Notes under the pieces: model-generated
Databases searched by the model: none
Seen by the model: the letters and a program-made list of their open reading frames with translations, nothing else
Told to the model about the DNA's origin: nothing
Shown here: one piece after another, positions 1,252-64,000 of the stretch
Numbering within the stretch: position 1 is the first letter of the stretch
How the letters are laid out: every line of letters begins with the position of its first letter
Made by a program: the position numbers and the translations under genes
Origin: Gemmatimonadota bacterium
GTDB lineage: Bacteria > Gemmatimonadota > Gemmatimonadetes > Gemmatimonadales > GWC2-71-9
Direction: 5' to 3'
NCBI GenBank assembly: GCA_031402225.1
Contig: JANNSD010000040.1
Coordinates: 27,710 to 91,709, forward strand
DNA length: 64,000 nucleotides

Positions 1252-1279
1252 GACTCTCAACTCTCGACTCTCGACTCTT
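1252..1279. repeat. Tandem heptamer array GACTCTC/AACTCTC x4 (complement GAGAGTC)
   Basis: Read directly: gactctc aactctc gactctc gactctt. It belongs to the NNGAGWC repeat family seen throughout the window. Confidence 0.9.
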
Positions 1280-1340
1280 CGATCAGGCGTCTTCGCTGGC
1301 CGGCGAACGACACCGCATCCTTCCCGTTCCAGAGCGATAC

Positions 1341-1838
1341 ATGGCGAACTTCACTGTCACCGATGCCGTCGGTACTACCCGGCTGTTCCCGGGCGTGGAG
1401 GCACTGCTGGACGCGCTCGAGCAGCACCTGCTCGGAGGCGAAGACTTCGTCTTCGATTCGGGGCGGGGAGCGTGGATCCGGCTCAAGGATCATCCCGCGG
1501 TGCAGGAGGGGTGGCTGGCGCGGCAGCGCTTTCGTCCGCTGGACGACCGGACATCGCTGTCCGGTGCCACAGCGAACGCGCTCGATTTCCCCAATCTCGA
1601 TGACGATGGCATCACGCCCAGGCACGGCGTATCGGTCGGCGACGACTTCGAACAGCGCCGGGCCGCCTGGCGAGCGATCCGCGACACCGCGCCCACGGCG
1701 GCAACACACTCCGATCCCTACCTGAGCGGCGAGCGGGTGCTGACGCGCGGCGCCGTGCTGGGAGCGGTCGGGCTGGTGGTGCTCATCTGCGGAGCGCTGG
1801 TCCTGATTGCCAGCGGCACGGCGGCGCTTACCCGATAG
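1341..1838 (+). CDS. Hypothetical protein with C-terminal transmembrane anchor
   Basis: ATG start and high GC3 codon bias. The C-terminal hydrophobic stretch is AVLGAVGLVVLICGALVLIASG. No family was recognised with confidence. Confidence 0.55.
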   Translation: MANFTVTDAVGTTRLFPGVEALLDALEQHLLGGEDFVFDSGRGAWIRLKDHPAVQEGWLARQRFRPLDDRTSLSGATANALDFPNLDDDGITPRHGVSVGDDFEQRRAAWRAIRDTAPTAATHSDPYLSGERVLTRGAVLGAVGLVVLICGALVLIASGTAALTR

Positions 1839-3246
1839 GTCCCGCAGCGCGCCGGCGTGCGTTCCCGACCACCCAGGCAATCACCCCGCTGGCCACCAGC
1901 AGTGCGCTCAAGCCAACCACCTTGATCACGTAGCGCCGACCGTCCGCCTCACCGGGCGGCGGAACGCACGCGAGCAGGATCGCCGCGACCGATGTGGCGA
2001 GGCCGGTCCAACCGAGGAGGATTGCCACGGGGCGGCCCCCAGGCGGGCGAACCACCTCGGGGCCCGCCGGTTCGCGCTGCAGCCGGATCATGGCCGCAAA
2101 CATCGCGATGTAGGGCAGGAAGAAGGCGACCACGCCGAGGCTCACGAGAATCTCGTAGGCCTGCTTCGGCGTCTCGCCTGCCTGGCCGAGAATGGCGCAG
2201 ACGGCTGCGACCGCGGCCTGGAGCAGGAGTGCCACGTGAGGTGTGCCGTAGGTCGGGTGCAGCTTGCCGAAGGCGCGGGGCAGGTAGTTGTCGATACCGG
2301 CGACGAACGGCAGTCGGGCCGGTGCGGCGAGCCAGACCCCCACGCCGCCCAGGGTGCTGAGCACGATGAGCAGGGCGGCGACCGGCGCCAGGCCCAGCAG
2401 GCCAATGCGCCGACCGGTGGCGGTGATGGCGTCCATGATGCCGGCCAGCCCGGTGATCTCGGCCTGCGGGAGGGCGAGCAGGATCGCCAGCGTGCCGAGA
2501 ACATAGATCGCGACAATGCAGACACCGCCAAGCCACACCGCGCGCGGAATACTGCGCCGCGGCTCGACAATCTCCTCGCCCATGAACGAACCAGCCTCGA
2601 GTCCGGTGAAGGCAAACGCGATCGTGGACCAGAAGACCATGTCGCGCAGGCCGGTGGACGGCAGGAGCGAGTGCGCGCTGATTGGTGTCGCGGACCCGAA
2701 GCGCGCCCAGGCAGCGAAGCCCATGCCGATCAGCAGGATCATGGGGACCCAGGTGGCAATGGCGCCCACGGTCGCGAGCCACTTGCCCACCTCGAGTCCG
2801 ACGATGTTCATGGCGGCGGCGATGGCAAGGCCAAGCAAGGCCACGACGATGAAGTAGGTGCTGCTGTCCTGCAGGTGGGCGTAGCGATCACCGAAAATGT
2901 AGAGCGCGGTGCTGGCGGCGAAGAACAGCAGTCCGGGCAGGTACGTGAGGTTGGAGCCCCAGTAGGTCCAACCGGTCATGAAGCCGGCAAACTCACCGAA
3001 GGCGCGCTTGGTCCACACGTAGATGCCGCCTTCGGCGGGATAGCGGGACGAGAGTTCGATGACGGTGAAGGCGAGGGGCACGAAGAGGCACAGTGCCGCG
3101 CCAACCCAGATGAGCAGCGCCGAGGGTCCGGCGGCGGCGGCGGTCGCCACCCAGCGCATGCCGAGGACTGCGGTGACGTAGAAAAAGACAAGATCCTTCA
3201 CCCGCAGGACCCGACGCAGGGATGGCTTGTCCGGTGGGTGCGTCAT
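1828..3246 (-). CDS. APC-superfamily amino acid permease
   Basis: 472 aa, about 12 hydrophobic segments. The N-terminus (FFYVTAVLGMRW ... SSRYPAEGGIYVWTKRAFG) is typical of amino acid/polyamine permeases. Confidence 0.85.
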   Translation of the reverse strand: MTHPPDKPSLRRVLRVKDLVFFYVTAVLGMRWVATAAAAGPSALLIWVGAALCLFVPLAFTVIELSSRYPAEGGIYVWTKRAFGEFAGFMTGWTYWGSNLTYLPGLLFFAASTALYIFGDRYAHLQDSSTYFIVVALLGLAIAAAMNIVGLEVGKWLATVGAIATWVPMILLIGMGFAAWARFGSATPISAHSLLPSTGLRDMVFWSTIAFAFTGLEAGSFMGEEIVEPRRSIPRAVWLGGVCIVAIYVLGTLAILLALPQAEITGLAGIMDAITATGRRIGLLGLAPVAALLIVLSTLGGVGVWLAAPARLPFVAGIDNYLPRAFGKLHPTYGTPHVALLLQAAVAAVCAILGQAGETPKQAYEILVSLGVVAFFLPYIAMFAAMIRLQREPAGPEVVRPPGGRPVAILLGWTGLATSVAAILLACVPPPGEADGRRYVIKVVGLSALLVASGVIAWVVGNARRRAAGPIG

Positions 3247-3256
3247 CGACTCTCCC

Positions 3257-9167: not shown

Positions 9168-9467
9168 ATGCAAAATGCAGAGAGTGTCCGCAAGGCGCTG
9201 CGCGCCGTGAAGGACCCCGAACTCAACCTCAATATCATCGACATCGGGCTGGTGTACGATGTCTCGGTGAACGACGACGGTGTGGCTCATATCAACATGA
9301 CGCTGACGTCACCCGGCTGCCCGTCGGGTGCCGAGATCATGGAAGACGCCCGCCGCGTTACCAGCGAGCTCGATGGAATCACGGCGGTGGAGGTGGAACT
9401 GGTGTGGGAGCCTTACTGGACGCCGGAGCGGATGGATCCTCGGGTGAAGGCGTTCCTGGGATACTAG
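9168..9467 (+). CDS. DUF59 / SufT-like Fe-S assembly protein
   Basis: 99 aa. VKDPELNLNIIDIGLVYDV and MTLTSPGCP are the hallmark of the DUF59 (MIP18/SufT) family. Confidence 0.8.
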   Translation: MQNAESVRKALRAVKDPELNLNIIDIGLVYDVSVNDDGVAHINMTLTSPGCPSGAEIMEDARRVTSELDGITAVEVELVWEPYWTPERMDPRVKAFLGY

Positions 9468-9469
9468 GC

Positions 9470-9509
9470 GTGAAGACGTGAGGACGTGAGGACGTGAGGA
9501 CGTGAGGCT
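9470..9509. repeat. Tandem octamer array GTGAAGAC/GTGAGGAC x5
   Basis: Read directly, between the convergent stops at 9467 and 9518. Confidence 0.9.
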
Positions 9510-10866: not shown

Positions 10867-11037
10867 TCATTCCCTCTGGGAGACCTGCTCCAGGCCCGCG
10901 GCGACCTCATCGAGCGCCTTGCTGAGCACCTTGAAGAATTCGGCATCGGGCTGGGGTGTGCCCCCCATGGCGGCGTCGAGCTGGAGCTTGCGCGCGAGTC
11001 GCGCGGCGTGACGGATGTAATCGGTGGGTGGCTTCAT
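10867..11037 (-). CDS. Small hypothetical protein (56 aa, below ORF-track cutoff)
   Basis: Hand translation gives MKPPTDYIRHAARLARKLQLDAAMGGTPQPDAEFFKVLSKALDEVAAGLEQVSQRE. It has strong GC3 bias, unlike the overlapping + strand ORFs. Confidence 0.4.
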   Translation of the reverse strand: MKPPTDYIRHAARLARKLQLDAAMGGTPQPDAEFFKVLSKALDEVAAGLEQVSQRE

Positions 11038-11040: not shown

Positions 11041-11096
11041 GAGTCGTGAGTCGTGAGTCGTGGGTCGTGGGTGGTGAGTCGTGAGTCATGAGTTAA
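11041..11096. repeat. Tandem heptamer array GAGTCGT x~8 (degenerating)
   Basis: gagtcgt gagtcgt gagtcgt gggtcgt gggtggt gagtcgt gagtcat gagttaa, in a divergent intergenic region. Confidence 0.9.
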
Positions 11097-11141
11097 GCGG
11101 TTGTGCTCGCCCTGTCCAACCCCCGGACGTACCTTCCAGCC

Positions 11142-12516: not shown

Positions 12517-12548
12517 GGACGTGAAGACGTGAAGACGTGAAGACGTGA
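12517..12548. repeat. Tandem octamer array (G/A)GACGTGA x4
   Basis: Read directly. It is inverted relative to the array at 12609..12632. Confidence 0.9.
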
Positions 12549-12608
12549 AGGGGGCGAACAGCGAGAACGACAAAGGGGCGGTCCCACCGGGGCCGCCCCT
12601 TATCATTG

Positions 12609-12632
12609 CCTCACGTCCTCACGTCCTCACGT
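12609..12632. repeat. Tandem octamer array CCTCACGT x3 (complement ACGTGAGG)
   Basis: Read directly. It ends 2 nt before the ferredoxin stop codon. Confidence 0.9.
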
Positions 12633-12633
12633 C

Positions 12634-12897
12634 CTATCGCTTCGGCCGTCCCGGCGGTGTGTCGCTGTCGAAGACCACTTTGTTCTTCTCGATATACGCC
12701 TGCATGTTGTCGGGCACATCTTCCTCGGGGAAGATGGCGGACACCGGGCACTCCGGCTCACAGGCCCCACAGTCAATGCACTCATCGGGGTGGATGTAGA
12801 GCTGGTCCTCGCTTTCGTAGATGCAATCCACGGGACAGACATCCACGCAGGCTCGGTCTTTCACGCCGATGCAGGCTTCGGTAATCACGTACGTCAT
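12634..12897 (-). CDS. fdxA: 7Fe-type ferredoxin (3Fe-4S + 4Fe-4S)
   Basis: [26 protein letters not shown] ... [12 protein letters not shown] cysteine pattern. The start is placed at MTYV (cat at 12895-12897). Confidence 0.85.
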
Positions 12898-21584: not shown

Positions 21585-21587
21585 GCA

Positions 21588-21608
21588 GTCGTGAGTCGTG
21601 AGTCGTGA
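21588..21608. repeat. Tandem heptamer array GTCGTGA x3 inside the suf operon
   Basis: Read directly in the 61-nt sufB-sufC spacer, with degenerate units up to ~21622. Confidence 0.9.
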
Positions 21609-21645
21609 GAGAGTCGGCAGTCATCAATGCTCAAGGAGTAGCGAC

Positions 21646-23690: not shown

Positions 23691-23741
23691 GGGAGACGGA
23701 AGACGGGAGACGGGAGACGGAAGACGGAAGACGGGAGACGA
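23691..23741. repeat. Tandem heptamer array GGAGACG/GAAGACG x7 inside the suf operon
   Basis: Read directly. It fills the whole sufD-sufS spacer. Confidence 0.9.
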
Positions 23742-25420: not shown

Positions 25421-25456
25421 GGAGGAACAGCAACAGCGTGAGGAGTGAGGGGGAAC
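25415..25456. repeat. ~42-bp dispersed element GCGTGAGGAGGAACnnnnACnGCGTGAGGAGTGAGGGGGAAC (copy A)
   Basis: 38/42 identical to 29181..29222. It overlaps the sufU stop, and its 3' part pairs with ccctcactcc at 25461-25470 to form a hairpin. Confidence 0.8.
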
Positions 25457-25516
25457 TCGCCCTCACTCCTTACTCCTCAGGCAGTTTGTTTTCAACGATC
25501 TAATCAGAGGATTGGA

Positions 25517-29169: not shown

Positions 29170-29180
29170 GAACCGCGACG

Positions 29181-34843: not shown

Positions 34844-36348
34844 CGGGGCCCATTCTCGAACTCAGCAACATCCACAAGCGATTCGGCACGGTGCAGGCGC
34901 TCACGGCTGCCGGGCTGGTTGTGCGCGCTGGCGAAGTGCACGCTCTGCTGGGTGAGAATGGCGCCGGCAAGACGACGCTGATGCACGTAGCCAGCGGGAT
35001 GCTGGCGCCCGATTCGGGGGAGATCCTGATCGACGGTGTGCCCCGGCGGCTGCGGTCGCCACGCGATGCGCGCGGAGCCGGGATCGGGCTGGTACACCAG
35101 CACTTCACATCCATTCCGGCCCTCACGGTTGCGGAGAACATCGCGCTCTTCGCCGGGTGGGAGGTGCGGCCGCGGGAGCTGGCGCTGCGCGTCGGCGCGC
35201 TGACCCAGCGGCTCAACCTTCCGCTCGACCCTGCGGCCCGGGCTGGAACCCTTCCGGTCGCGCTGCTGCAGCGGCTCGAGATCGTGAAGGCGCTCGCGGG
35301 CGATGCGCGGGTGCTCCTGCTCGATGAACCCACCGGCGTGCTGGCACCGAGTGAGGCGGACGAACTGCTGGCCCGGGCCCGCGCGTTCGCCGAGGCGGGC
35401 GGCGCGGTGGTGCTGATCACCCACAAACTGGATGAGGCGCTGCGGGGTGCTGACCGTGTGACGGTGCTGCGGCGGGGCGCGATGGTGCTTGAACGGGAGA
35501 CGGGAGACGGGAGACGGGAGACGGAGGAGGGAACAGGGTTAGGAGTCAGGAGTCAGGAGCTGGGAGTACTGACACGGGCGATGATTGGGGAGGCGAGCAT
35601 TCTCGACGAGCCGGTACCGGCATCGTTCACCGCGGAGGATGCGCCGAGGCGAGTGCATGTAGCGGGGCTCGAGGTGGCGCGCGAGTCGGGGCTGGGCATG
35701 GCAGTGAAGCAGGCGTCGCTTGGTATCAGGGCGGGAGAGATCGTGGCCGTGGCGGGGATCGAGGGCAGCGGCCAGCGAGAGCTGCTGCGTGCCATCGCCG
35801 GCGTGCTGCCGGTGTTCCGCGGAACGCGCGAGGTGACCCAGCCACTGGCGTTCATCCCGGAGGACCGCACCACGGAGGGATTGATCCCCGAGCTTTCGCT
35901 GACGGAGAATGTGGTGCTGGGTCTGGGACGATCAGCAAGCTGGGTAAGGCGAGGTCGCCTCGACTGGTCAGCGGCGAAGCGGCGCACCGGCGAGATGATT
36001 GCGGAGTTCGGGGTTCGCGCGGCCGGAACGGATGTGCCGGCAGCAACCCTGAGCGGCGGCAACCAGCAGAAGCTCATCATCGCGAGGGCACTGGAGCGAT
36101 TGCCGGCGGTCATCGTCGCCGAGAACCCGACGCGGGGCCTCGACGTGCAGGCCACCCGCGCGGTGCACGACCGGCTGCGCGAAGCGGCCGGGCGTGGCGT
36201 CGCGGTGCTGCTGTACTCCAACGACCTGGATGAAGTGATGACGCTGGGCCAGCGTATCGTGGTGATGGCGCGGGGAACGCTCCGGGAGGCCACTGCGGGT
36301 GCATCACGGTCGGCGATCGGTGAGTTGATGCTGGCGGGCCCGCCGTGA
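34840..36348 (+). CDS. Dual-domain ABC importer ATPase (BMP/sugar-nucleoside type) with repeat-derived linker insert
   Basis: Two ABC halves: GENGAGKTT / LLLDEPTGVL and GIEGSGQRE / LSGGNQQK / VAENPTRGLD. The linker contains the heptamer repeats at 35495..35568. Confidence 0.9.
   Translation: MTGPILELSNIHKRFGTVQALTAAGLVVRAGEVHALLGENGAGKTTLMHVASGMLAPDSGEILIDGVPRRLRSPRDARGAGIGLVHQHFTSIPALTVAENIALFAGWEVRPRELALRVGALTQRLNLPLDPAARAGTLPVALLQRLEIVKALAGDARVLLLDEPTGVLAPSEADELLARARAFAEAGGAVVLITHKLDEALRGADRVTVLRRGAMVLERETGDGRRETEEGTGLGVRSQELGVLTRAMIGEASILDEPVPASFTAEDAPRRVHVAGLEVARESGLGMAVKQASLGIRAGEIVAVAGIEGSGQRELLRAIAGVLPVFRGTREVTQPLAFIPEDRTTEGLIPELSLTENVVLGLGRSASWVRRGRLDWSAAKRRTGEMIAEFGVRAAGTDVPAATLSGGNQQKLIIARALERLPAVIVAENPTRGLDVQATRAVHDRLREAAGRGVAVLLYSNDLDEVMTLGQRIVVMARGTLREATAGASRSAIGELMLAGPP
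35495..35568 (+). repeat. Intragenic heptamer arrays GGGAGAC x4 and AGGAGTC x4, in frame
   Basis: Read directly. They translate as RETGDGRRETEEGTGLGVRSQELGV between the two ABC domains. Confidence 0.9.
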
Positions 36349-38582: not shown

Positions 38583-38585
38583 GCC

Positions 38586-38627
38586 GGGAGACGGGAGACG
38601 GGAGACGGGAGACGGGAGACGGGAGAC
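38586..38627. repeat. Tandem heptamer array GGGAGAC x6
   Basis: Six perfect copies starting 4 nt after the stop codon, then degenerate ggcaggc gggcaga. Confidence 0.95.
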
Positions 38628-38693
38628 GGCAGGCGGGCAGAAACTGAGGTTGGTGCGCGGTCGTAGGGAGGGAATCCCCTTCCCTGCGACCGC

Positions 38694-47411: not shown

Positions 47412-47419
47412 GACCCCTC

Positions 47420-48049: not shown

Positions 48050-48067
48050 ACGATCCCGACCTCAAAG

Positions 48068-49012
48068 CTACTTCTGACGGACGCCTCGACGAACCCGCCG
48101 AGCCTGCTCGGCTGGGTGGGCACGTGCGTGCACAGCTTGAAGGCGCACTATCGAAACATGGGTGTATCTGGCCGTTGTTGCGAGGTTTGTATGACCCAGG
48201 ATGGCCTGGACATCCCGTACGTCCGCACCTCCCTCCAATAGCAGGGTGGCCATGGAATGCCGGAACAGGTGGCAGCTCCCGGCCTTGGCCACGTCTGCCG
48301 CCTCGACGTACCGGCGGACCCTCTCCGACAGGCGATTCAGCAGCATGGGAGTGCCGTGGCTGCTGACGAAGAGGAACTCACTTCTCACCTCTCCAACCAG
48401 TCGCGGTCGGCTTCGCTTCAGGTAGCGGCGCACCCAACCGAGTGCGCGCTTGCCACACGGAACAACCCGGTCTCGCTGGCCCTTGCCCGCTCGGACCAAC
48501 ACTACCCCCCGTACCTGGTCGATATCTGCCACGTGAAGATGCGCGACCTCCGCTCGCCGCAGGCCAGTGGAGTAGAGGACCTCGAGAACGGCACGGTCCC
48601 GAAGGCCAAGCATGGAGCGACTGTCCGGACGCCTCAAGACTCGCTCAGCCTCCCTTGAGTTCAGCACCGACATGGGCAACTGAAATGGCCGCTTTGGCAG
48701 GCGCATGGACACTCCGGCGCTGGACACCAGCAGGCCCGAAGAGACTGCCCAACCAAGGAAAGCCTTGATTGAGCCGAGGTATTCCGCCTGCGTGCCCCAA
48801 GCCAACGGCTGTCCGGTCCGGAGCCTGGCCTCGAAGAGCGTGAGACGGAAGCGCTCGAGCCGCTCCCGCGAGAGTTCGGCGGGATGCTCGATCTGAAACG
48901 GCGCGCACCATCGCAGCAGGCGATAAAGGCACGAGCGCTGGTTTCGTACTGTTGCCACCGCATGATTGGTGGCGCGCAGCCACGACAGGTACTCCTCGAC
49001 AAAAACACGCAC
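48068..49012 (-). CDS. Tyrosine site-specific recombinase (XerC/XerD-like)
   Basis: N-terminal SAM-like core-binding domain. Catalytic residues are in STGLRRAE (R), KGQRDR (K), HLFRHSMAT (H-x-x-R), ILGH (H) and TARYTH (Y). Confidence 0.9.
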   Translation of the reverse strand: MRVFVEEYLSWLRATNHAVATVRNQRSCLYRLLRWCAPFQIEHPAELSRERLERFRLTLFEARLRTGQPLAWGTQAEYLGSIKAFLGWAVSSGLLVSSAGVSMRLPKRPFQLPMSVLNSREAERVLRRPDSRSMLGLRDRAVLEVLYSTGLRRAEVAHLHVADIDQVRGVVLVRAGKGQRDRVVPCGKRALGWVRRYLKRSRPRLVGEVRSEFLFVSSHGTPMLLNRLSERVRRYVEAADVAKAGSCHLFRHSMATLLLEGGADVRDVQAILGHTNLATTARYTHVSIVRLQAVHARAHPAEQARRVRRGVRQK

Positions 49013-49176
49013 GAGTTGGCTCCGGGTTCTGAGTCCGCTCGAAGCTACGCGCGCTGCGCCAGCCTATCTCACATCGTCTCAGGACATCGCATGAGACACC
49101 CACCGAGACATTCCTCGCACTCGTCGAGGCCCTAAGTCATTCAGCGACAACAGCCTCTGCGGCTCGGCACCACGGC

Positions 49177-55287: not shown

Positions 55288-55700
55288 TGCGATCTATGAA
55301 ACTCTGGATGAGTGGTGAGGTCGATGCGGACGTATACGACGCCTTTCGCGCGGCGAGGCAGGATGTTGAGTCCGCTGTAGCGGCAGTGCTTGCCCGCGAG
55401 TCGTTTGGACCCCCTGCCCTTGAGTGGGCAGTCATTCCCATCATCCGCTCGGAAGACCATCCCGACTACCGGGAGTTGGTGCAGTTCCATGCTCGCCGAA
55501 CGACCGTGGAGTTCCGGCTCAGGGTGTCCCACGTGCAGTTCCGTTCCGGAACATCGGGGCAGCAGCGAGGCCTCCTTGTCCAAGCTCTGTTACGCAGCCT
55601 GTCGATGTTGCCCGTGGGGCTATCGGCGTCCGTCAGGGCCGCAGAGCTTGGAGCAGGCCTAGGCGCTCTAGCCCGGTCGGAGGGCTGGCCATTAACCTAG
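55287..55700 (+). CDS. Putative cognate immunity protein of the expressed Rhs tip
   Basis: 137 aa. The ATG overlaps the rhs stop (TGATG). Confidence 0.6.
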   Translation: MRSMKLWMSGEVDADVYDAFRAARQDVESAVAAVLARESFGPPALEWAVIPIIRSEDHPDYRELVQFHARRTTVEFRLRVSHVQFRSGTSGQQRGLLVQALLRSLSMLPVGLSASVRAAELGAGLGALARSEGWPLT

Positions 55701-55809
55701 GGAATGCACTAACTGGACGCGCCAGCCGACCCCGTGCTGGATGGAGCACGGTCCGTTAGCTAAAAGCGCGCCGCACACGCGCCCAAGCCGACTTGATCTT
55801 TGGTTGTGG

Positions 55810-55833
55810 GGGATCCTGCTGACCCAGGATCCC
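55810..55833 (+). repeat. 24-bp palindromic cassette-junction site GGGATCCTG CTGACC CAGGATCCC (perfect)
   Basis: Read directly. Confidence 0.95.
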
Positions 55834-56349
55834 ATCGGGCTGGCCGGCGGCGTCAACCTGTATGCGTACGCGGGGAACAACCCCGTCGCGTTCAGCGATC
55901 CGTATGGACTCTGCCCGCAGGTGCCCCACCTTTGTGTCGTGGCGGCCGTGGCTGTGTTCAAGATCGCTTCCGCCGCCGCTCGGTCGCCTACTGGGCAACG
56001 AGTTGTCCAGCGTGGGTCGGAACTGGCGCGCAATCTTGCCCAATCGGGCGCCGTTCGCCAAGCCGGAGAAGCTGCGCACCACATCGTCGCGCAGACCGCG
56101 AAGGCTGCTCAACCAGCCAGAGACAAGCTCGCGGAAGTTGGCATCAAGATCAACGATGCAGTGAATGGTGTTATTCTGCCCGCCACGAGAGAGTATGTGG
56201 GTCAAGCAGTCAATCACCTGATAGTCCACACGCAGAAGTACTACAACGCCGTCAACGAGGCGCTGGCGAACGTGCAAGTCAAGGAAGAAGCGGTTGCGGC
56301 GCTCAAGGCGATCGGAGAGGCCCTCAAGGACGGATCGTTCACTCCGTGA
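55810..56349 (+). other. Orphan Rhs tip 1: AHH-type HNH/EndoVII nuclease toxin
   Basis: GILLTQDPIGLAGGVNLYAYAGNNPVAFSDPYGL, then EAAHHIVAQ (AHH at 56074..56082), INDAVNGVILP and HTQKYY, matching the AHH nuclease family pattern. Confidence 0.75.
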
Positions 56350-56888
56350 CCATCACAAGCATTTACAAGCTGGGCTACCAGCTAGATCGGGTGACCAGCT
56401 TCGCGCTGGTGGACCAAACCGCGGGTTTCTTCAACCAGTTCGACGGGCGCGCCCTCGCGTCGGCGTGGTCCCCGCCTCGCGTTCACCCGGCGGACACACC
56501 CGACGATGATGCGACCCTGGGGGATTGCACGGTTCTAGGCACGGTCCCGCTCTTGTCGCAGCGGGCTGCCGCGGTTCTCGACGAGTTCCTACGGGATTCC
56601 GCCGAGCTCCTGCCGGTGGTGTATCCGAGGGCACCGTACTTCGTGCTGAATGTCCTGGGAATGGCGGACTGCCTCCTAGAAGGGGCATCTGATCTTGAGC
56701 GGTTCCCAACCGGCCGCGTGATGCGGGTGCGGCGCTACGTGTTTGACCGGGCACGACTGCCGGGCACCGCGATCTTTCGAATACCCCAGCTGGCTCGGGC
56801 TCATATATTCGTGAGTGATGCTTTCCGGGTTGCTGTGCAAGCCGCAGCTCTCAATGGGTTTAATTTTGAGTTGGTGTGGACCGCTTGA
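56346..56888 (+). CDS. Putative immunity protein for the AHH tip (possibly Imm11/DUF1629-like)
   Basis: The GTG overlaps the toxin stop (GTGA). 180 aa. The family assignment comes from memory only. Confidence 0.55.
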   Translation: MTITSIYKLGYQLDRVTSFALVDQTAGFFNQFDGRALASAWSPPRVHPADTPDDDATLGDCTVLGTVPLLSQRAAAVLDEFLRDSAELLPVVYPRAPYFVLNVLGMADCLLEGASDLERFPTGRVMRVRRYVFDRARLPGTAIFRIPQLARAHIFVSDAFRVAVQAAALNGFNFELVWTA

Positions 56889-57038
56889 GCCGAAGGTCGA
56901 AGCCTAAGGCGCCCCTACCGTGTGTGAACAAGGCGCGCGCTCAAGAGCGAAGTACGACCTACCTTGCAAGAACGCAGCGGAAAGTAGGAAAGGCGCAATT
57001 GGCTTAGCAGGGCTGCTGGGTACGACAGCATCAATCTC

Positions 57039-57062
57039 GGGATCCTGCTGACCCAGGATCCC
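57039..57062 (+). repeat. 24-bp palindromic cassette-junction site (perfect)
   Basis: Read directly. Confidence 0.95.
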
Positions 57063-57626
57063 ATTGGGTTGGCTGGCGGCGTCAATCTGTACGCGTATGC
57101 GGGGAACAATCCCGTGAGCTTCAGCGACCCGTTTGGACTGTTCGAGTGCGTTCAACAGGGAAACTGCACACAAGGGGAAGTTGGGAAGGTCGGCGCAAGG
57201 AACAATAAGTCCCTTGCGGACATCCGTGCGGATATGAAGGCGGATGGCAGCGTCAATGAATTGCCCTATGTCATAGCGGCGGCGACCATTTCGGTGAGCG
57301 CTCCAACGACAGCGATGGGAAGGGTTGCGGCAGTACTCGTACCACGGGCAGGGACGGCACTTGGCCGCTTAGTTGGCAAGCCAAACCCTACAAAGCTGAA
57401 CCGAGCGGGGGATCAACAGCCTTTCAACGCCAGGAATGGGCAATACCTTGCTCCATCTGCGAATCCGGGGCTCAGGAATTCACCAGTCGGGGACTTTGGG
57501 ATTGGATTTGGACAGGGCTACGCGTCCGGAATTACGGGTGCGGTGGCGCCAGACGCAACTAGTGCTGCTATGGGTTGGGGGCAAACGGTTGGTCAGTTCG
57601 TGGGCGTCCTATTCGATGGAAACTAG
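57039..57626 (+). other. Orphan Rhs tip 2: unknown toxin with Gly-rich C-terminus
   Basis: GILLTQDPIGLAGGVNLYAYAGNNPVSFSDPFGL, then a ~150-aa tip ending GIGFGQGYASGITGAV...GWGQTVGQFVGVLFDGN. Confidence 0.7.
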
Positions 57627-57628
57627 AA

Positions 57629-58144
57629 ATGACTGCACCGATTCTCCTCGTATTGACCCTGGGCATTGCCTTCGCCGCGTTCTGGCAGCTCGGCAAGCGC
57701 CCCCACGCGCACAAAAATCTGCAGCCCGATGACGTCAAGCGGTTATTGGGTACGCTTCTGCGCAGGGGCTTCAATCAGGGATTTCTAGTGCTTGACGTAA
57801 AGCTTCGATCACAAAAGGGTCAAAGGCGGTTCATTCAGTTTACGAAGTACATTAGGAGAGGACAAGCAGGGCTTCAGTTTGACTTTCCCTTGGTGGATTG
57901 GTCGACCCCTTACTACGCGGAATTGCAGTCTGTTCTTAGGCGGGATGGCTTTTCGTTCGTTACGACGAGTACTGGTAGGACTGACACGCGAGAGTTCCTC
58001 ACGATTGATTTCGGCTCAAGCATTGATCGGGCATCACAACTCGCGAACGTGGCGATTGAGGTGTTGGTGCCTACGCAATCGGATAGGAATATCACTGGCT
58101 TTTTACACAATGTCAGTGCTCGCGACACGGAGGTAACTGCGTAG
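57629..58144 (+). CDS. Putative immunity protein 2 (N-terminal TM)
   Basis: ATG 2 nt after the toxin stop. MTAPILLVLTLGIAFAAFW forms the TM. Confidence 0.55.
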   Translation: MTAPILLVLTLGIAFAAFWQLGKRPHAHKNLQPDDVKRLLGTLLRRGFNQGFLVLDVKLRSQKGQRRFIQFTKYIRRGQAGLQFDFPLVDWSTPYYAELQSVLRRDGFSFVTTSTGRTDTREFLTIDFGSSIDRASQLANVAIEVLVPTQSDRNITGFLHNVSARDTEVTA

Positions 58145-58365
58145 TATGCCACGCAGGCGCTCCATCGCGAGTGCGCGGAGGGATGGAGGTTCGCCGTCGA
58201 ACGGTCCAGCGGGAGCTGTAGAGGGCCTACCGGCGCCGGCGCGCGGAGCTCATGGTCGATGGCTCCGCGGAAGACGTTACGCTGAAGGCCTGAACTGGAG
58301 GCTCAAGAACGAACGCGTAAGTCCGCTATCTCGGATCCCTCAACGGCGAGAAGTCGACTCTTTCT

Positions 58366-58389
58366 GGGATCTTGCTGACCCAGGATCCC
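58366..58389 (+). repeat. 24-bp cassette-junction site, one mismatch (GGGATCTTG CTGACC CAGGATCCC)
   Basis: Read directly. Confidence 0.9.
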
Positions 58390-58974
58390 ATCGGGCTGGC
58401 CGGCGGCGTCAATCTGTATGGGTATGTGGGGAACAACCCGATCGGATTCAGCGACCCTTATGGGCTGGCTCCTGAACACGGTTGCCCGCCGTGCCTGCCG
58501 CAAGGTGTAGAGGGTCTGGCAAATCTGTCACCGGGGGAGCTGCAGTCAGCACTTGAAAGATCCCTCGAGCCCCCGCTGTCGCATTCGTACGACGTAGACC
58601 TGAGTGTGACTGTGCCCGGTGGCAGTTTGTCTCTTTCTGATCCAAGCCACATGCGGACACAGATCGGTGGACTCGCTGGCGTGACGGTCGACTTCACGAT
58701 GACGGCCAACACGACGCCCGCTAACCCGGCCACTCTTGACCTCGGGACAGGGCTGTCTTTGGTCGCGGTGAGTCTCGGGAAGGGTGTCGCCAGTGTGCAC
58801 ATTGGCCCGAGCATTGGGTCCCCCCTTGGGGTGACCCTTCCGGGGACAACGGACATCAACACTCGAGCCCCCGCCTCCGGGACGATGCCGCGCGACGCCA
58901 CATCTGTGCGACAGGGATCTCCGGCAATAGGATACTCAGACTCAGTGGGACGGCTCCTCAGCGGCAGGCCGTAG
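58366..58974 (+). other. Orphan Rhs tip 3: unknown toxin
   Basis: ILLTQDPIGLAGGVNLYGYVGNNPIGFSDPYGL, then a ~165-aa tip with no family recognised. Confidence 0.7.
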
Positions 58975-58975
58975 C

Positions 58976-59374
58976 GTGTTGCAGCGCGAATGGCGACCGT
59001 GCACCTTGCTCGCGGCAGCGCTTGTTGTGGGTTGCTCAGACATCCGACACCTACGCCGCGCGGCCGAGGGTGTCGCCGCGGTCGTGCCGGCGCAGGAGGT
59101 GACTGCCACGCTGAAGGGACGGGGCCAGTTGGTCGTCACCATTGTCAACTCACCGTTGGGTCGTTCCCCTGATTCAGTCGTACGCAAGGTGTCCGAGGAG
59201 CTCGCGATTCAGGTTAGCTCGCAATACGACGGGGACGGACCGATTGCTTCGGTCACAATCTCCTTTCGAGAACGCGCCAGCGTTGGCCCCGTGGGCGCAC
59301 CCACTGGCGTTGCTTCCTATGTCTTCACTATGGCACCGATCGACACCCTAGCTGCGTACGACACGCGGAAATAG
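58976..59374 (+). CDS. Putative immunity lipoprotein 3
   Basis: GTG 1 nt after the toxin stop. Lipobox LVVGCS. Confidence 0.5.
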   Translation: MLQREWRPCTLLAAALVVGCSDIRHLRRAAEGVAAVVPAQEVTATLKGRGQLVVTIVNSPLGRSPDSVVRKVSEELAIQVSSQYDGDGPIASVTISFRERASVGPVGAPTGVASYVFTMAPIDTLAAYDTRK

Positions 59375-59384
59375 AGAGCAGGGC

Positions 59385-59630
59385 ATGCCACCCCATTCCG
59401 CCGCGAACATGTTGCGTGTGGCCCTTGCGGCGGTTGCCATCATTTCCTGGGGAGTTGCCCTCGTGCTGGCATTCCTCACAGCGGTGGGTCGATCGGGCGG
59501 GCCCAGGAGATGGTTCGTGCCGCTCTGGTCCAGTACCGGCCTGTCGGATCAAGGCCTGCGGCACCGTCGCCTGCATGTCCGGTGGGCCTGTGTTGGAACT
59601 CTTGCGGCCCTAGCGGCGGCGTTGGTATAG
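59385..59630 (+). CDS. Small two-TM membrane protein (second gene of cassette 3)
   Basis: 81 aa with two hydrophobic segments. The coding call is tentative. Confidence 0.35.
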   Translation: MPPHSAANMLRVALAAVAIISWGVALVLAFLTAVGRSGGPRRWFVPLWSSTGLSDQGLRHRRLHVRWACVGTLAALAAALV

Positions 59631-59690
59631 ACGCAGTGTTTGACCCCGATTGAACGGATACCGCTTTGCTCTGGGGGCCAACATTCTCCG

Positions 59691-59714
59691 GGGATCCTGC
59701 TGACCCAGGATCCC
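59691..59714 (+). repeat. 24-bp palindromic cassette-junction site (perfect)
   Basis: Read directly. Confidence 0.95.
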
Positions 59715-60236
59715 ATCGGGCTGGCCGGCGGGGTCAATCTGTATGCGTACGCGGGGAGCAACCCCGTTGCGTTTAGTGACCCCTTCGGCTTGCTCGCCGA
59801 CACGCTGCGATACAACGGAAAGACTCTGACTTTGAGTGCCGACGATGGGACGATAAAGTGGACCGGACGCGCTACGTCGGGACGACCTGGTGCCACCACG
59901 AATGACCAAGCCAAAGAGAACTTCGGCCCAATACCTGAAGGAACCTACGAGACGGGCAAGATTTTCAACGAGAAGGGGCTGAGGAAGGTCTTGTTCAAGA
60001 TTAAGACTCTTGGCGCTGACTACGGTGACTTCCGTACGCCACTCACGCCAACGAACAACTCGGACTCGAAGGGAAGGACAAGCTTCTGGCTGCATGGTGG
60101 ACAGAGGCCCGGATCGGTGGGGTGCATTGATGTTGGATATCGGGACAGGAGCTTGTTCACTCTGTTGAAGCAGGCGGACGGCCCCGTGCCACTCATCGTG
60201 ACATATCCATCAACTCAACTCCATCAGGCCCCATGA
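59691..60236 (+). other. Orphan Rhs tip 4: Tlde1/DUF2778-like (L,D-transpeptidase-fold) toxin
   Basis: GILLTQDPIGLAGGVNLYAYAGSNPVAFSDPFGL, then GPIPEGTY ... FWLHGGQRPGSVGCIDV. The H...S.GC catalytic pattern is that of YkuD/Tlde1-type domains. Confidence 0.6.
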
Positions 60237-60661
60237 GCCTACACGTTCCTCGTCCCGCATTGGTGGCGGGCTTCATCGCAACGCTATGCTATGGTGTACT
60301 CCATCAGCTATGGCTGAGGCAATGGCTTGCCCAGAATACCGGTCGGTTGCCTTCGGTTCCGAGTTGGCTACTCGTGGTTGCATTTTCCATCGTCTTCGTC
60401 GGTTCAGCCGCTGCTGCCGGTCTCGCTGGCGCGCACTGGAAACTGATTACGGCCTCGGTCGTTACTGCATCGGTAGTTTGCGGTCTAATGGTCGCAGCCG
60501 TCGCGAGCTGGGCGACATCGAGCACCGAGATCTACCGGGACGTGTCCCCGGCCCAGCAGCTCTTGGCAGTGAGTCCCTACATCCTAGGAGTGGCGATTTC
60601 CCTGGGATGCCTGGGCCTGTTCCCGGCTTGGCTTGCGCGAATCGTGGCCGGGCGCGCATGA
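60233..60661 (+). CDS. Putative immunity protein 4 (four-TM membrane protein)
   Basis: The ATG overlaps the toxin stop (ATGA). 142 aa, polytopic. Confidence 0.55.
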   Translation: MSLHVPRPALVAGFIATLCYGVLHQLWLRQWLAQNTGRLPSVPSWLLVVAFSIVFVGSAAAAGLAGAHWKLITASVVTASVVCGLMVAAVASWATSSTEIYRDVSPAQQLLAVSPYILGVAISLGCLGLFPAWLARIVAGRA

Positions 60662-60702
60662 CTGGTCTTGGCACGAACGCGTGAGCTAGCACGGGATGGT
60701 GA

Positions 60703-60738
60703 CGATCCTGCTGACCGAGGATCCTGCTGACCCCAGCG
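60703..60738 (+). repeat. Terminal degenerate junction sites without cargo: GATCCTG CTGACC GAGGATCCTG CTGACC CCAGCG
   Basis: Read directly. Two overlapping left-arm + spacer units are followed by unrelated sequence. Confidence 0.85.
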
Positions 60739-60846
60739 ACGTACAGGCCACTGGGAGAGCTGGGGCTCCACCCCGCGCTGAGGCTGCTTGCCAGTGAAGT
60801 GTATGTACGGTATTCTAGTCATGTACACACATTTCAGGGAGGTTGT

Positions 60847-61065
60847 GTGGCCAAGACGCGATCGCCCGCTAAAGGGGCCCGCAAGGTGCCCAAGACCTAC
60901 CGTCTGGCACCCGACAAGGTAGCCGCCGCCCAGCGCGTCCTGGGTGCAGCGACCGCGACCGAAACGATTGAGCAGGCGCTCGACCTCGTGGTGTTCCGCC
61001 AGGCCCTGATCGACGGCACGCGCAGCCTCTTCGGGCTCACGATCGACGCACCCGAGCATGGCTAG
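60847..61065 (+). CDS. vapB: VapB-type antitoxin
   Basis: GTG preceded by GGGAGG. TETIEQALDLVV motif typical of the VapB_antitoxin family. Confidence 0.65.
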   Translation: MAKTRSPAKGARKVPKTYRLAPDKVAAAQRVLGAATATETIEQALDLVVFRQALIDGTRSLFGLTIDAPEHG

Positions 61066-61531
61066 GGCGGACGCCGGCGCACGGAAGTACGCGCTCGATA
61101 CCAACCTGTTCATTCACGCCTTCCGCGACCCCGTCGCCCGGGAGGCGTTGCTGCGTTTCCACGCGGCGTTTGCCCCCTTCGAATACTTGAGCGTCGTCGT
61201 GGCGCAGGAGCTCCGGGCCGGCACCCGGCGTCCCGGCGACCGCGCCCGCCTGGAGCGGGAGCTGCTGGCGGTGTTCGAGCGCACCGGACGGGTGGTCACG
61301 CCCTCGCGTCAGGCATGGCACGATTCCGGGGATGTGCTCGCCGCGCTAGCGGCCAAGGAGGGGCTGGAGGCGGGGCGGGTCTCCAAGGCGTTCGGAAATG
61401 ATGTGCTTCTGGGGCTGTCCTGCCGCGAATCCGGGCTCACACTCGTGACGGATAACATCGCCGATTTTGAGAAGATCAGTCGAATTGTGCCGGTACCCTA
61501 CGTCGCTCCCTGGCCCGGAACCCTCACCTGA
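61058..61531 (+). CDS. vapC: PIN-domain toxin VapC
   Basis: YALDTNLFI, ...VAQEL..., GNDVLLG and LVTDNIADF acidic motifs. Overlaps vapB by 8 nt. Confidence 0.8.
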   Translation: MARADAGARKYALDTNLFIHAFRDPVAREALLRFHAAFAPFEYLSVVVAQELRAGTRRPGDRARLERELLAVFERTGRVVTPSRQAWHDSGDVLAALAAKEGLEAGRVSKAFGNDVLLGLSCRESGLTLVTDNIADFEKISRIVPVPYVAPWPGTLT

Positions 61532-61848
61532 CGCCCGCGCGAGGGACTCGTTGCGGCTCGGCTCCGGGGGCATGCGTCGTTTCGTGAGGGTGTAACGCTA
61601 GCGACGGCGAACACGTGGAGTTCGCGCGGCTCCGGCACGTTGCGCCGGTCGCGTTCCCTGTCCCCACTCATGAGAAGACGAGGGGCGGTATTGATCCTTG
61701 AAGCAGGTGATGACTGGTCGCGTAGAGCATGACCGAGTATCAGGCCAACCACCAGCGATACTGACCCAAAGCCGATGGCCGCGACCAATCCGCCGGGACG
61801 GCGAATCTCCAGGCAGCCCCTGGTCACCCTCACGCACGGAGCTCGAAC

Positions 61849-62061
61849 ATGACGCCGTCCGAACTCGTTTTCCTGGTGGACGAGGCGCCCGAAGTCGGCT
61901 ATGTGGCGCGGGCGCTCGGCGCCTCGATCGTCACGGAGGCCGACGATCTCCCCGCGCTGCGGACCCAAGTGCGCGACGCCGTGCGCTGTCACTTCGAGGC
62001 GCCGGCGATGCCGCCCGTCATCCGGCTCCACTTCGTGCGCGACGAGATTATTGCCGCGTGA
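61849..62061 (+). CDS. HicB-like (UPF0150) antitoxin-like protein
   Basis: 70 aa. ELVFLVDEAPEVGYVARALGASIVTEADDL resembles the N-terminal HicB fold. Confidence 0.45.
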   Translation: MTPSELVFLVDEAPEVGYVARALGASIVTEADDLPALRTQVRDAVRCHFEAPAMPPVIRLHFVRDEIIAA

Positions 62062-62210
62062 GCGGTGCCAACGCGCAGCTGCCCAAGCGACCGGCTACAG
62101 ACATGTCGTCACGCGGCAGACCGGCAGCCACATCCGACTCACGACACAGGAGCATGGCGAGCATTATCTGACGATCCCCGACCACACCACCCTCCGGGTC
62201 GGAAGAAGAA
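62051..62210 (+). pseudogene. HicA/YcfA-like toxin remnant
   Basis: The frame reads ...AQATGYRHVVTRQTGSHIRLTTQEHGEHYLTIPDHTTLRVG (the GSH...P.H...L..G pattern of HicA). Only a TTG start is available, and the frame then runs on into the convergent gene without the usual C-terminus. Confidence 0.35.
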
Positions 62211-62243
62211 GGCCAGCCGGCCCTGACATCGCGCGCGGAGCAG

Positions 62244-62858
62244 CTACCTCGGCGTCACCATCAGGTGCGCCCACGGCTCGCCAGGATACATCAGCCACGG
62301 CCGGCCTGAACCATCGGCCGAAGTGGAGAAACCGGACGACGCAACCGTCGCATACGGGATATACACGACATACCAGCGGGTGCCGTTGCCGCGAGGCAGG
62401 CCGGTAGCAGCGTCGATGCTGTCCTTGGGCGCCACCATGTTGTAGAGCGCCGCCGGGGTCGTCGGCATGCTCCAGCGACCGGCCTTGATGTCCGCCAGGC
62501 GAGCGCTGTCCACCTGCGCGTGCTTCAGCTTCAGCTTGTGCAGTTCCCTGCCCCGCGCCATGAACGGCTCGAGCGACTGCTGGTAGCAGGCCACCTGGAA
62601 GCGATCGGTGGCAGGATCATCGGCCAGGCAGATGAGTTCGTTGGTGCCCTTCCGGATCTCGACCAGTTCCCCGCCCTGCCACCCCAGCACGCGCGCACCG
62701 GCACGCATGGAATCGGGCGCCGGCAGGACGGCACCGGCCACCTGCTGCTCAACCGACGGGGCCTGGGCCCAGGCAGGAGCGGCGGCGATGACCGAAAAGA
62801 AAAACACCGCGCAGCCCCAGATACGGGACTGCGCGGTGCCATTCATGTGGTAGCTCAA
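62244..62858 (-). CDS. Secreted hypothetical protein
   Basis: Signal peptide ...VFFFSVIAAAPAWAQA and good GC3 bias. No family was recognised. Confidence 0.55.
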   Translation of the reverse strand: MSYHMNGTAQSRIWGCAVFFFSVIAAAPAWAQAPSVEQQVAGAVLPAPDSMRAGARVLGWQGGELVEIRKGTNELICLADDPATDRFQVACYQQSLEPFMARGRELHKLKLKHAQVDSARLADIKAGRWSMPTTPAALYNMVAPKDSIDAATGLPRGNGTRWYVVYIPYATVASSGFSTSADGSGRPWLMYPGEPWAHLMVTPR

Positions 62859-63748
62859 TCTTCGACGATGATGAGGTACCTCGACGCCGCCCAGAACTCA
62901 CTCGGCGACGTGATCGTCTGCGTACCGACGAGCTTGCCCTTGTTGTCCGGGCCCGGCTGGAGAAGGCTCGGGTCCTGCCGGGAGATGATCTTGTACTTCT
63001 TGCCCTCGGGCAGCGTGATGCTGCGATCGGTGCGGGCATCGAGCACCTGGAACGCCGCCGGGTTCAGGTCACGCGCCGGGACGGTCTGCCTGCCACCGAA
63101 CACCAGGAACTTCTTGCCTTCCTGGACGATGACACCCTTGGCGCGGAGCGAGTCCTTGGTGCCGAGGGCCAGGAACACCTGGTTGGCCTCGTTGCTGACG
63201 AGCGTGACGCTGTCGGCGAGCTGGCGGTTCTTGACGGTGACCGTCTCGACCTGGGCCCCGAGCTGCTCGATCTGGACCTTCTGGGCAACGATCGTGGTCT
63301 TCTGCTCCTCGATCGTGGTCTGCTGCGCCTCGATGTTGGTGCGCAGTTCCGCGATCTGCTTCTGGAAGTCGTCGATCTGCTTCAGGAGCCGCGCGTCCTT
63401 GCGCTCGAGGGAGCCGATGCGCGCCTTGGTGCGCTCGAGCTGTGCTTCGCTCTCGTTGAGGCGGGCCACCGCCTCACGGATCTTGCCCAGCAGGATCTGG
63501 CGGTCTTCGGCGGCGCTCGAGGCGGTGGTGCCCTCGCTCGTCGTGGTCGGGCTCACACCCAAGCCCCGGGCCTTGGCGAGCTCGCTGTTGACGTCGCTCA
63601 CGAGCTTGCTCGTCGCGAGGACTTCGCTCAACAGGCTGTCCTTCTCTGCTGCCAGAGAAGTGGCCTCACTCTGTGCCTTCTCCAGATCCTTCCGGCTGGC
63701 GCACCCAGCCGTCATGATGAGAAGGCCTGCCAGCATCAGCTTACGCAT
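62855..63748 (-). CDS. Coiled-coil lipoprotein
   Basis: Lipobox MRKLMLAGLLIMTAGC at 63748. A long heptad-like region (LERKDARLLKQIDDFQKQIAELRTNIEAQQTTIEEQKTTIVAQKVQIEQL) precedes a globular C-terminus. Confidence 0.6.
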   Translation of the reverse strand: MRKLMLAGLLIMTAGCASRKDLEKAQSEATSLAAEKDSLLSEVLATSKLVSDVNSELAKARGLGVSPTTTSEGTTASSAAEDRQILLGKIREAVARLNESEAQLERTKARIGSLERKDARLLKQIDDFQKQIAELRTNIEAQQTTIEEQKTTIVAQKVQIEQLGAQVETVTVKNRQLADSVTLVSNEANQVFLALGTKDSLRAKGVIVQEGKKFLVFGGRQTVPARDLNPAAFQVLDARTDRSITLPEGKKYKIISRQDPSLLQPGPDNKGKLVGTQTITSPSEFWAASRYLIIVED

Positions 63749-63960
63749 TCGATGATTCTCCGTTAACAGCGACTGTCCGCATCCCTTGAAGATTTCGATC
63801 CGAAGCCCGCGCGCCTGCGCGTCGACCTCGAATCCGGCGACCGCGCGCGGAGTTGGCGGCTGCCGAAGGCGAGCTAACACTAATCAGGGCAAGGCATTTG
63901 CGTAGTGCGCCAGATCACACTGGGCTCGTCCTTACCCGGGAGCGGTGATGTGCGTCACAG

Positions 63961-64000
63961 TCGAGAGTCGTGAGTCGTGAGTGAGTCGTGAGTCATGAGT
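63961..64000. repeat. Tandem heptamer array TCGAGAG/TCGTGAG (runs to window end)
   Basis: tcgagag tcgtgag tcgtgag tgag tcgtgag tcatgag. Confidence 0.85.

Follow-up and report, generated by a model that had tools for sequence, protein, structure and literature searches.

What are the short tandem repeats that sit at gene boundaries in a soil Gemmatimonadales genome, and where do they come from? The question was raised by a 64,000-nucleotide stretch of DNA (the window, C40:27710-91709) of the genome analysed here, called G000, a metagenome-assembled genome (MAG) of 3.6 Mb in 201 contigs with 67.6% GC and 99.9% completeness. SufB relatives assign it to Gemmatimonadales. A preliminary description of the window had listed arrays of 7- and 8-nucleotide units after stop codons or in short spacers and had taken them for a genome-specific family. 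Our analysis suggests that the arrays are probably the paired or solitary repeat-built arms of widespread hairpin elements resembling the intervening sequences (IVS) of rRNA, and it connects them with small genes of the PF05635 family. This family comprises the 23S-rRNA intervening-sequence proteins, which are Avd-like four-helix bundles. The link with PF05635, which is the part of these results that matters most, is an association, shown by unit matching and co-occurrence. Tandem heptamers are known in cyanobacteria and Xanthomonas without an assigned origin or function (PMC4692102), and G000 adds a Gemmatimonadota case, with several hundred arrays, of this known kind of repeat.

Tandem heptamers and octamers are dispersed in the genome

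Arrays were detected with Tandem Repeats Finder (TRF; periods 7 and 8, at least 3 copies), and those of the window were also read in the sequence itself. All the arrays listed in the preliminary description were present (Table 1). Mapped genome-wide, as that description had proposed, the arrays were concentrated at gene ends and far exceeded the null counts: 277 period-7 and 156 period-8 arrays (433 in total) were found against 27 and 18 (45) in a size-matched 5th-order Markov genome. With at least 4 copies, the counts were 175 and 85 against 2 and 0. Merging of overlapping TRF rows reduced the 433 arrays to 419.

The commonest heptamers were GAGTCGT (79 arrays), GGGAGAC (51), CAGTCGT (20), CGGCAGT (19) and GAGGCGT (17), and the commonest octamers were GAGGACGT (87 arrays) and GAAGACGT (21). 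On the G-rich strand, 324 of the 419 merged arrays match CGNNAGN or CGNGARGN. Units interconvert by single changes, CGTGAAGA minus one base being CGGAAGA. The motif NNGAGWC, put forward initially for the heptamers, fits those of the window and fails as a description of the genome-wide family, to which CGGCAGT, CGTCAGT and CGTGAGG also belong.

PF05635 genes are enclosed by arms made of the dispersed units

Five PF05635 genes (23S-rRNA-IVS / Avd-like) were detected in G000 with scores of 40-123 bits (cut-off 33.8 bits), and all five are enclosed by convergent complementary repeat arms (Table 1). Bracketing by convergent arrays was seen for only 7 of the 3315 called genes screened, and no cargo gene other than PF05635 was found between convergent arrays in G000. 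Four of the elements have arms built from the four unit families predominating among the dispersed arrays. In 287 of the 419 arrays the unit is exactly that of an arm, and in 53 more it differs from an arm unit by a single mismatch (340 in total). The five element loci lie between protein-coding genes and not within the 23S rRNA gene, where rRNA IVS sit in helix 9, 25 or 45.

The same arrangement was found in relatives, which were sampled at 60-400 kb each. Within the genus, 25 of 25 PF05635 genes have convergent repeat arms; these genes occupy five syntenic sites and the protein subfamily tracks the arm unit. At one syntenic site the arm unit varies between species. Dispersed arrays use the arm units of their own genome, GTGAGCG in G003 and AACGGTG in G006, and in G009 only octamer arrays were seen, matching the octamer arms of both its PF05635 genes.

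The gene of the fifth G000 element, on C95, is syntenic in eight species (G000 and those of L185, L193, L194, L199, L202, L203 and L206). Its arms differ from site to site: 15-mer, GTGAGGG, GTGAGCG, GGTGAAC, GTAAACA or GGGAACT. The arms at this site are replaced or remodelled far faster than the gene.

Across the phylum, the PF05635 family was present in 99 of 151 Gemmatimonadota genomes, and arrays flanked both sides at ~26 of the 29 PF05635 loci sampled. A structure has been solved for only one relative, XCC0516 of Xanthomonas campestris (PDB 2GSC), and the link points to this small crystallised protein. Among 80 multi-phylum loci related to XCC0516, gathered by a single-protein query, arrays were present on both sides in 51 and on at least one side in 74. 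The two-sided loci had period 7 in 33 of 51 cases, and their G-rich arm was 5' in 38 and 3' in 0, with 13 ambiguous. In Xanthomonas vasicola, the XCC0516 homologue is located between accB and accC. Its flanking arrays, (CGGGAAT)x4.4 and (CCCATTC)x4.3, belong to the published GGGAATC family (PMC4692102). Judged by their sequences, the units shared with PF05635 arms would tie the arrays to the heptamer repeats of Xanthomonas and cyanobacteria. In the literature searched, no paper linking PF05635 to tandem heptamers was found. A PF05635-like gene with 48% identity to the Xanthomonas query was also seen, with short flanks, on a Methanophagales archaeon MAG contig (L350).

Genomes of the same genus carry 65-150 arrays per Mb with overlapping units, and the Acidobacteriota, Planctomycetota and Bacteroidota loci have heptamers of their own (~64 per Mb), frequently paired and with the purine-rich arm leading. 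What the window alone had suggested, a genome-specific family, therefore does not hold: the units are shared across the genus and the architecture across phyla. Array density also followed the presence of PF05635. Six genomes without the family had 0, 0, 1, 0, 0 and 0 arrays per 100 kb and nine genomes with it had 5, 5, 14, 0, 1.5, 3.5, 6.5, 0 and 6.8 (Spearman rho 0.74, p 0.002; Mann-Whitney p 0.008; 15 genomes, small samples).

Pairs are always convergent and solitary arrays follow GC skew

Neighbouring arrays, defined as two arrays less than 250 nt apart, form 41 pairs in G000, and all of them are convergent (41:0, none divergent), with the G-rich array 5' and the C-rich array second, on both strands. 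They fold into long imperfect hairpins with predicted energies of -32 to -105 kcal/mol, and their arms often differ at one position per unit (CGTGAGGA with CGTGAAGA, CGGCAGT with CGTCAGT). This polarity is not a general property of hairpins, since ordinary intergenic hairpins have the G-rich arm 5' in a ratio of merely 201:139.

Both G-rich strands of a pair end 3' toward its centre, as expected from 3'-end extension at a break, and PF05635 is related to Avd, the reverse-transcriptase partner in diversity-generating retroelements (PMC10053308). A templated addition of repeats, telomerase-like or retroelement-like, could be read from these two points. However, the 99.9%-complete G000 contains no PF00078 reverse transcriptase, and the pair centres are unique sequence common to relatives. 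An artefact of metagenome assembly, which the 201 contigs could bring to mind, is contradicted by several observations: arrays inside genes leave the reading frames open, only 11 of the 419 arrays lie at contig ends, and relatives with assemblies of 4-10 contigs carry the same families. Moreover, typical sequencing reads are longer than these arrays of 20-110 nt. Templated addition or artefact is thus hardly credible and largely refuted.

Unpaired arrays outside genes have their G-rich strand on the locally G-skewed strand in 126 cases against 25 (p 2e-17), with the skew taken locally in a fragmented MAG. The bias was 51:6 for arrays whose flanking genes are codirectional with the skew and 25:5 for those whose flanking genes point the other way. 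As it is seen with both gene directions, orientation follows the source of the skew, most simply replication, and not transcription. The preliminary description had called for a census of array strand relative to both processes, and of the two it is the skew, not the direction of transcription, that orientation tracks.

Arrays at gene ends and their possible role as signals

Genes were mapped with a home-made codon-score caller, by which ~92% of the genome was called coding. Despite this high coding density, 264 of the 324 family arrays lay outside genes or at a gene edge (146 intergenic, 118 touching a gene end) and 60 lay well inside open reading frames (ORFs); start codons near arrays are uncertain with this caller, and the assignments to "edge" and "inside" are approximate. 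The initial statement that arrays occupy gene boundaries therefore holds for most of the family and not for the roughly one fifth that are in frame inside genes, among them those at 35493-35559, where there is no spacer. Near stops, G-rich arrays lie at a median of -2 nt from the stop codon and the array often supplies the stop itself. Gene-less pairs and solitary arrays are placed where 20-110 extra bases are tolerated, namely after stops, in intercistronic spacers and in protein linkers, and the position immediately after stop codons thus partly reflects where such an insert is tolerated.

The same placement could come from selection of the arrays as cis-acting signals, be it as terminators, mRNA stabilisers or processing sites, stop backstops, ribosome standby sites, G-quadruplexes or binding sites for host proteins. 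Solitary arrays near stops are G-rich in the mRNA sense 85:31, and 10 pairs have convergent genes on their two sides, against one pair with divergent genes. The hairpin at 25461 has, in contig L123 (~95% identity), other heptamer arms (CGGTGAA type) in the same hairpin; its sequence changed while pairing was kept, and a T-rich run follows it. (GGGAGAC)n further has the G3N4 spacing of quadruplexes, and G4 formation in vitro has been shown for the heptamers of Xanthomonas and Nostoc (PMC4692102).

Other data speak against such roles. Intrinsic termination was rejected because most pairs have no T-tract after them and solitary arrays have no adjacent hairpin, and a Shine-Dalgarno or standby-site role because orientation near start codons is 27:29. 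Selection for G-U wobble at the RNA level in the pairs was rejected as well, sense and antisense transcripts folding equally (13/28; p 0.97). For quadruplexes, G3 tracts were found only in the CGGGAGA subfamily (~50 arrays) and none in CGTGAGT or CGTGAGGA, and no preference for four units was seen, 3 and 4 copies being near-equal in frequency (109 and 103 arrays). Orientation is set by GC skew and not by gene direction, the 60 in-frame positions hold the same units as the spacers, and most arrays of the window are missing from the same sites in relatives of 82-90% identity (see below). Taken together, these observations make selected cis signals quite improbable as an explanation of the family.

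Arrays of the window are gained and lost between close relatives

The features of the window and the five PF05635 elements are collected in Table 1. The closest relative, G003, is ~82% identical in nucleotide sequence and otherwise collinear, and the metagenome contigs L115 and L116 are ~90% identical. No contig of the same strain was retrieved by exact protein match. Most of the window arrays are missing from the orthologous sites in G003 and L115/L116. Between close relatives, the array content changes fast by gain and loss, and the absence of arrays from orthologous sites argues against an essential local function. No known RNA family was found in the window.

Table 1. Repeat features of the window and PF05635 elements of G000. 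Window positions are numbered from the first nucleotide of the window; MFE, minimum free energy.
Feature	Position	Strand	Repeat units or arms	Gene context or fold	Same site in relatives
Convergent pair	1217..1278	.	GTCCAGA x2.9 purine-rich (1217-1235), small central palindrome, CTCTCGA x4.6 pyrimidine-rich (1247-1278)	Begins 3 nt past stop of gene ending at 1214	Mostly missing from G003
Solitary octamer array	9469..9507	+	CGTGAGGA x4.9, G-rich on + strand	Begins 2 nt past stop of FeS-assembly-protein gene (9168-9467); convergent genes either side	Empty in G003
Solitary heptamer array	11041..11093	+	GAGTCGT x7.6	Separates divergent genes 10867-11037 (-) and 11103-12359 (+)	Related, degenerate array in G003
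Convergent octamer pair	12518..12635	.	GACGTGAA x4.1 (12518-12550), inner GC hairpin, CCTCACGT x3.4 (12609-12635)	Predicted long imperfect hairpin, MFE -65.9 (+ strand) and -74.1 (- strand) kcal/mol	Only a 9-bp stem, AGGGCGGGT/ACCCGCCCT, in G003
Heptamer array	21587..21625	+	AGTCGTG x3.3 (21587-21609) plus degenerate units	Fills sufB-sufC spacer (44 nt)	Spacer of 4 nt, empty, in G003, L115 and L116
Heptamer array	23691..23740	+	GGGAGAC/GGAAGAC x6.7	Fills sufD-sufS spacer; stops 4 nt short of sufS GTG start	Octamer CGTGAAGA x2-3 in G003 and L115/L116, where G000 has heptamers CGGAAGA/CGGGAGA x6.7
Short hairpin, repeat-built arms	25446..25479	.	GTGAGGA, GTGAGGG ... CCCTCAC, TCCTTAC, TCCTCA	After NifU-like gene; T-rich run follows	
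Two in-frame arrays	35493..35559	+	ACGGGAG x4.6 (35493-35524), AGGAGTC x2.7 (35541-35559); translated ...ERETGDGRRETEEGTGLGVRSQELG...	Part of linker joining the two ABC domains (Pfam) of an ATPase (34840-36348)	Missing from five orthologues (G004, G008, G011, G009, L116)
Solitary heptamer array	38585..38637	+	CGGGAGA x7.6	Begins 3 nt past stop of small transglycosylase-associated protein gene; GC hairpin follows	Degenerate CGGGCAGG/CGGTGGG/CGGCAGG tract in G003
Heptamer array	63959..64000	+	AGTCGTG, ~12 units, extending ~45 nt past window end	Upstream of - strand gene 62855-63880	
PF05635 element	C66		CGTGAGT / CGGCAGT		
PF05635 element	C152		CGTGAGGA both sides		
PF05635 element	C136		CGGGAGA both sides		
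PF05635 element	C161		CGTTAGG / CGTGAGG		
PF05635 element	C95 (gene at C95:9028-9336)		15-mer		

Two of the arrays had been described as filling intercistronic spacers of the suf operon. Pfam confirms SufB, SufC, SufD, SufS and the NifU-like protein, and the arrays at 21587 and 23691 do therefore fill the sufB-sufC and sufD-sufS spacers. For the array listed at 38586, the presence was borne out and the copy number corrected, the 6 units counted initially being 7.6 by TRF. In another Gemmatimonadota bacterium (bin118, CP070815.1; L073), about six CGGGAAT/CGGGGAT units follow the sufB stop at the sufB-sufC junction; CGGGAAT is the unit of the Xanthomonas GGGAATC repeat, here in another phylum.

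Could these changes be the work of slippage alone? The arrays would then be plain long-unit simple sequence repeats, each produced locally by polymerase slippage, and PF05635 cassettes would insert into, or survive in, repeat hairpins that already existed. A heptamer excess is found in many bacterial genomes and slippage has been proposed as its cause (PMC4692102). The skew-linked orientation suggests a replication-linked process, the copy-number distribution declines smoothly from 3 to 17, and the sufD-sufS site shows an octamer turned into a heptamer in place by a 1-nt deletion. Unconserved flanks and the fixation of PF05635 elements at syntenic sites fit this explanation equally well. It leaves unexplained, however, why the same four unit families recur in ~340 arrays at unrelated sites, how the sufB-sufC spacer gained 40 nt of ready-made repeat without a local seed, why dispersed units co-vary between species with the arm units of the resident PF05635 genes, and why arrays are nearly lacking in genomes of similar GC without PF05635. 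Slippage as the whole explanation is for these reasons rather unlikely.

Two other regions of the window were noted. Directly after the stop of gene 27862-29169, a 21-nt unit, AGGAACCACGACGGCGTGAGG, is repeated 2.1 times (29168-29211) and followed by GAGTGAGGGGG; it lies outside the 7/8-nt family as defined, though ending in the GTGAGG motif. The region 43000-62200 is without counterpart in G003, has a GC content of 0.60-0.64 and no positive skew, holds a 2036-aa ORF (49177-55287), and looks like an acquired island.

Arrays inside genes are translated in loops and linkers

The arrays inside ORFs encode parts of loops and linkers in real proteins. Where the unit bears TGA, the C-rich, stop-free strand is the coding one in 44 of 45 cases. 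Three Ser/Thr kinases carry array-encoded peptides such as ...THDSRLT...

These three kinases are paralogous, and their arrays lie in one shared kinase-domain loop and the linker that follows it, with repeat-derived peptides that differ by paralogue. A DnaE2-like polymerase contains four in-frame arrays (loci of the polymerase and the kinases together: C50:63000-66260, C112:1473-4193, C112:7229-9847 and C74:12756-15497). MutL, outside the window (C111:8809-10593), has 15.9 CTGACGA heptamer units in frame in its inter-domain linker. Judging from the reading frames, a change of one unit in the tracts of MutL, DnaE2 or the kinases would shift the frame. In MutL, gain or loss of one unit would truncate the protein and could act as a reversible mutator switch. 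A second, unrelated repeat was also seen in proteins (C154:14479-15291 and kinase loops in C112 and C74), encoding VILSEAF, in 21-nt tandem units, and HPERSEGS/HPARSEGS.

An orthologue of the window's ABC ATPase in G010 (4 contigs, 83% complete; C1:827831-829315, L091/L093/L094) is split in three frames by TGA. The breaks look like indel errors of a long-read assembly and not like those of a pseudogene, and array copy numbers in G010 therefore need caution.

The arrays also matter for annotation. They create false GTG starts, supply stops and write junk loops into proteins, kinases, MutL and DnaE2 among them, and have to be taken into account in gene calling and in the comparison of proteins.

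A model of IVS-like elements and the points that weigh against it

We propose that a complete element would consist of a G-rich tandem-repeat arm, a small PF05635 gene and a complementary C-rich arm, and that G000 would keep five such elements, syntenic within the genus, alongside gene-less pairs and solitary arms. The identification of the arrays as arms of these IVS-like hairpin elements is, as stated above, probable. Their copy number would most likely change by replication slippage with strand asymmetry. Transcribed pairs would form long double-stranded RNA stems, which by analogy with rRNA intervening sequences may be cut by RNase III. Most copies would be selfish or neutral DNA and not required signals. 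The PF05635 protein, or a factor linked with it, may act on its own repeat unit.

A broader reading can be put forward tentatively, namely that the heptamer and octamer families are cis-sites of one pan-bacterial PF05635 system that would drive the birth, spread and homogenisation of arrays. We would likewise offer only as a possibility, short of a likely one, that PF05635 recognises the unit flanking its own gene, directly or through host replication or repair, and that this extends to Xanthomonas GGGAATC and probably to the cyanobacterial repeats.

Several results weigh against the IVS-like model and its extension. A machinery for spread was not found: the elements contain no transposase, and G000 has neither a PF00078 reverse transcriptase nor a RAYT (REP-associated tyrosine transposase; REP, repetitive extragenic palindromic). 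The 15 nt flanking the arrays carry at most ~0.4 bits per position, without conserved flanks, and PF05635 elements lie at syntenic sites and are thus not visibly mobile. G031 has 8 PF05635 genes and zero arrays in the 100 kb sampled, and G009 has PF05635 yet 0 arrays under a strict filter. Dispersed copies of the 15-mer arms of the fifth G000 element are very rare. A copying process directed from the leading-side arm to the other was rejected, arm lengths being equal and the predicted longer leading-side arm absent. Relatives were covered by small samples, and solitary arrays could have arisen by slippage alone and have no more than their units in common with the elements.

Two modes of mobility were discarded. 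A mobile element with fixed ends is ruled out by the unconserved flanks, and mobilisation of the RAYT type by the lack of any PF01797 match in G000, compared with matches in 6 of 14 control genomes.

Comparison with known systems

Rehm et al. (2015) described GGGAATC heptamers in Xanthomonas campestris and X. axonopodis and GGGGA(C/T)T in Nostoc PCC 7120, which are dispersed, ~90% intergenic, close behind the upstream ORF, variable between species and of unknown function (PMC4692102). In Xanthomonas they form 70-75 convergent pairs, and no leading/lagging preference was reported (PMC4692102). The over-representation of heptamers in many, large GC-rich genomes and the idea of polymerase slippage are attributed there to Mrazek (2007), and no link to PF05635 is drawn (PMC4692102). 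The G000 family shares with these repeats its dispersed tandem heptamers, far above chance and with few dominant units, its mostly non-coding location near an upstream ORF and its convergent stem-loop pairs. It differs in its units (CGTGAGT, CGTGAGGA, CGGGAGA and others), in the coexistence of heptamers and octamers, in having one quadruplex-capable subfamily, in the ~18% of arrays that are in frame in genes and in the skew orientation of its solitary arrays.

The short tandemly repeated repetitive (STRR) sequences are heptamers of heterocystous cyanobacteria. The family of G000 is of this kind, as had been thought from the window: both consist of scattered tandem heptanucleotide families with few unit types per genome, and they differ in phylum and in units.

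Dispersed hairpin-forming intergenic repeats are also provided by the REP sequences and bacterial interspersed mosaic elements (BIME), and by the Rickettsia palindromic elements, which also insert in frame into proteins, as G000 arrays occur in frame. Unlike REP/BIME-RAYT, G000 has no PF01797, no fixed element sequence and no conserved ends, and the copy number of its arms varies. A miniature inverted-repeat transposable element (MITE) does not describe them either: no fixed element was found in G000, and the array flanks were unconserved (at most ~0.4 bits per position over 15 nt on each side).

A further parallel is found in the 23S rRNA IVS of Coxiella burnetii and Leptospira, where an ORF of the PF05635 family likewise lies in the loop of a stem with complementary termini (PMC4990558). 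The Coxiella IVS has its S23p ORF in the loop and its stem is cut by RNase III (PMC4990558). Such rRNA elements are regarded as selfish, and by what means they spread is unknown (PMC4990558). The elements of G000 differ in lying between or inside protein genes, in having stems of tandem 7-8-nt repeats and in being accompanied by hundreds of gene-less pairs and solitary arms.

The pan-bacterial reading has its parallels in the pairs formed by RAYT with REP and by Ssn with NTS. In the latter, the small gene of a single-strand-DNA nuclease is flanked by its own dispersed repeat, NTS/SRM (Chenal et al. 2025, PMC11893778). Ssn is a GIY-YIG nuclease with demonstrated activity, whereas PF05635 is a four-helix bundle, a fold without known enzymatic activity, that is considered here from its sequence; and NTS is one hairpin of 20-50 nt, whereas each arm in G000 is a tandem array. 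In both systems, a small single-domain gene has its own repeat on either side, the repeat is expanded genome-wide, and repeat and protein co-vary between species.

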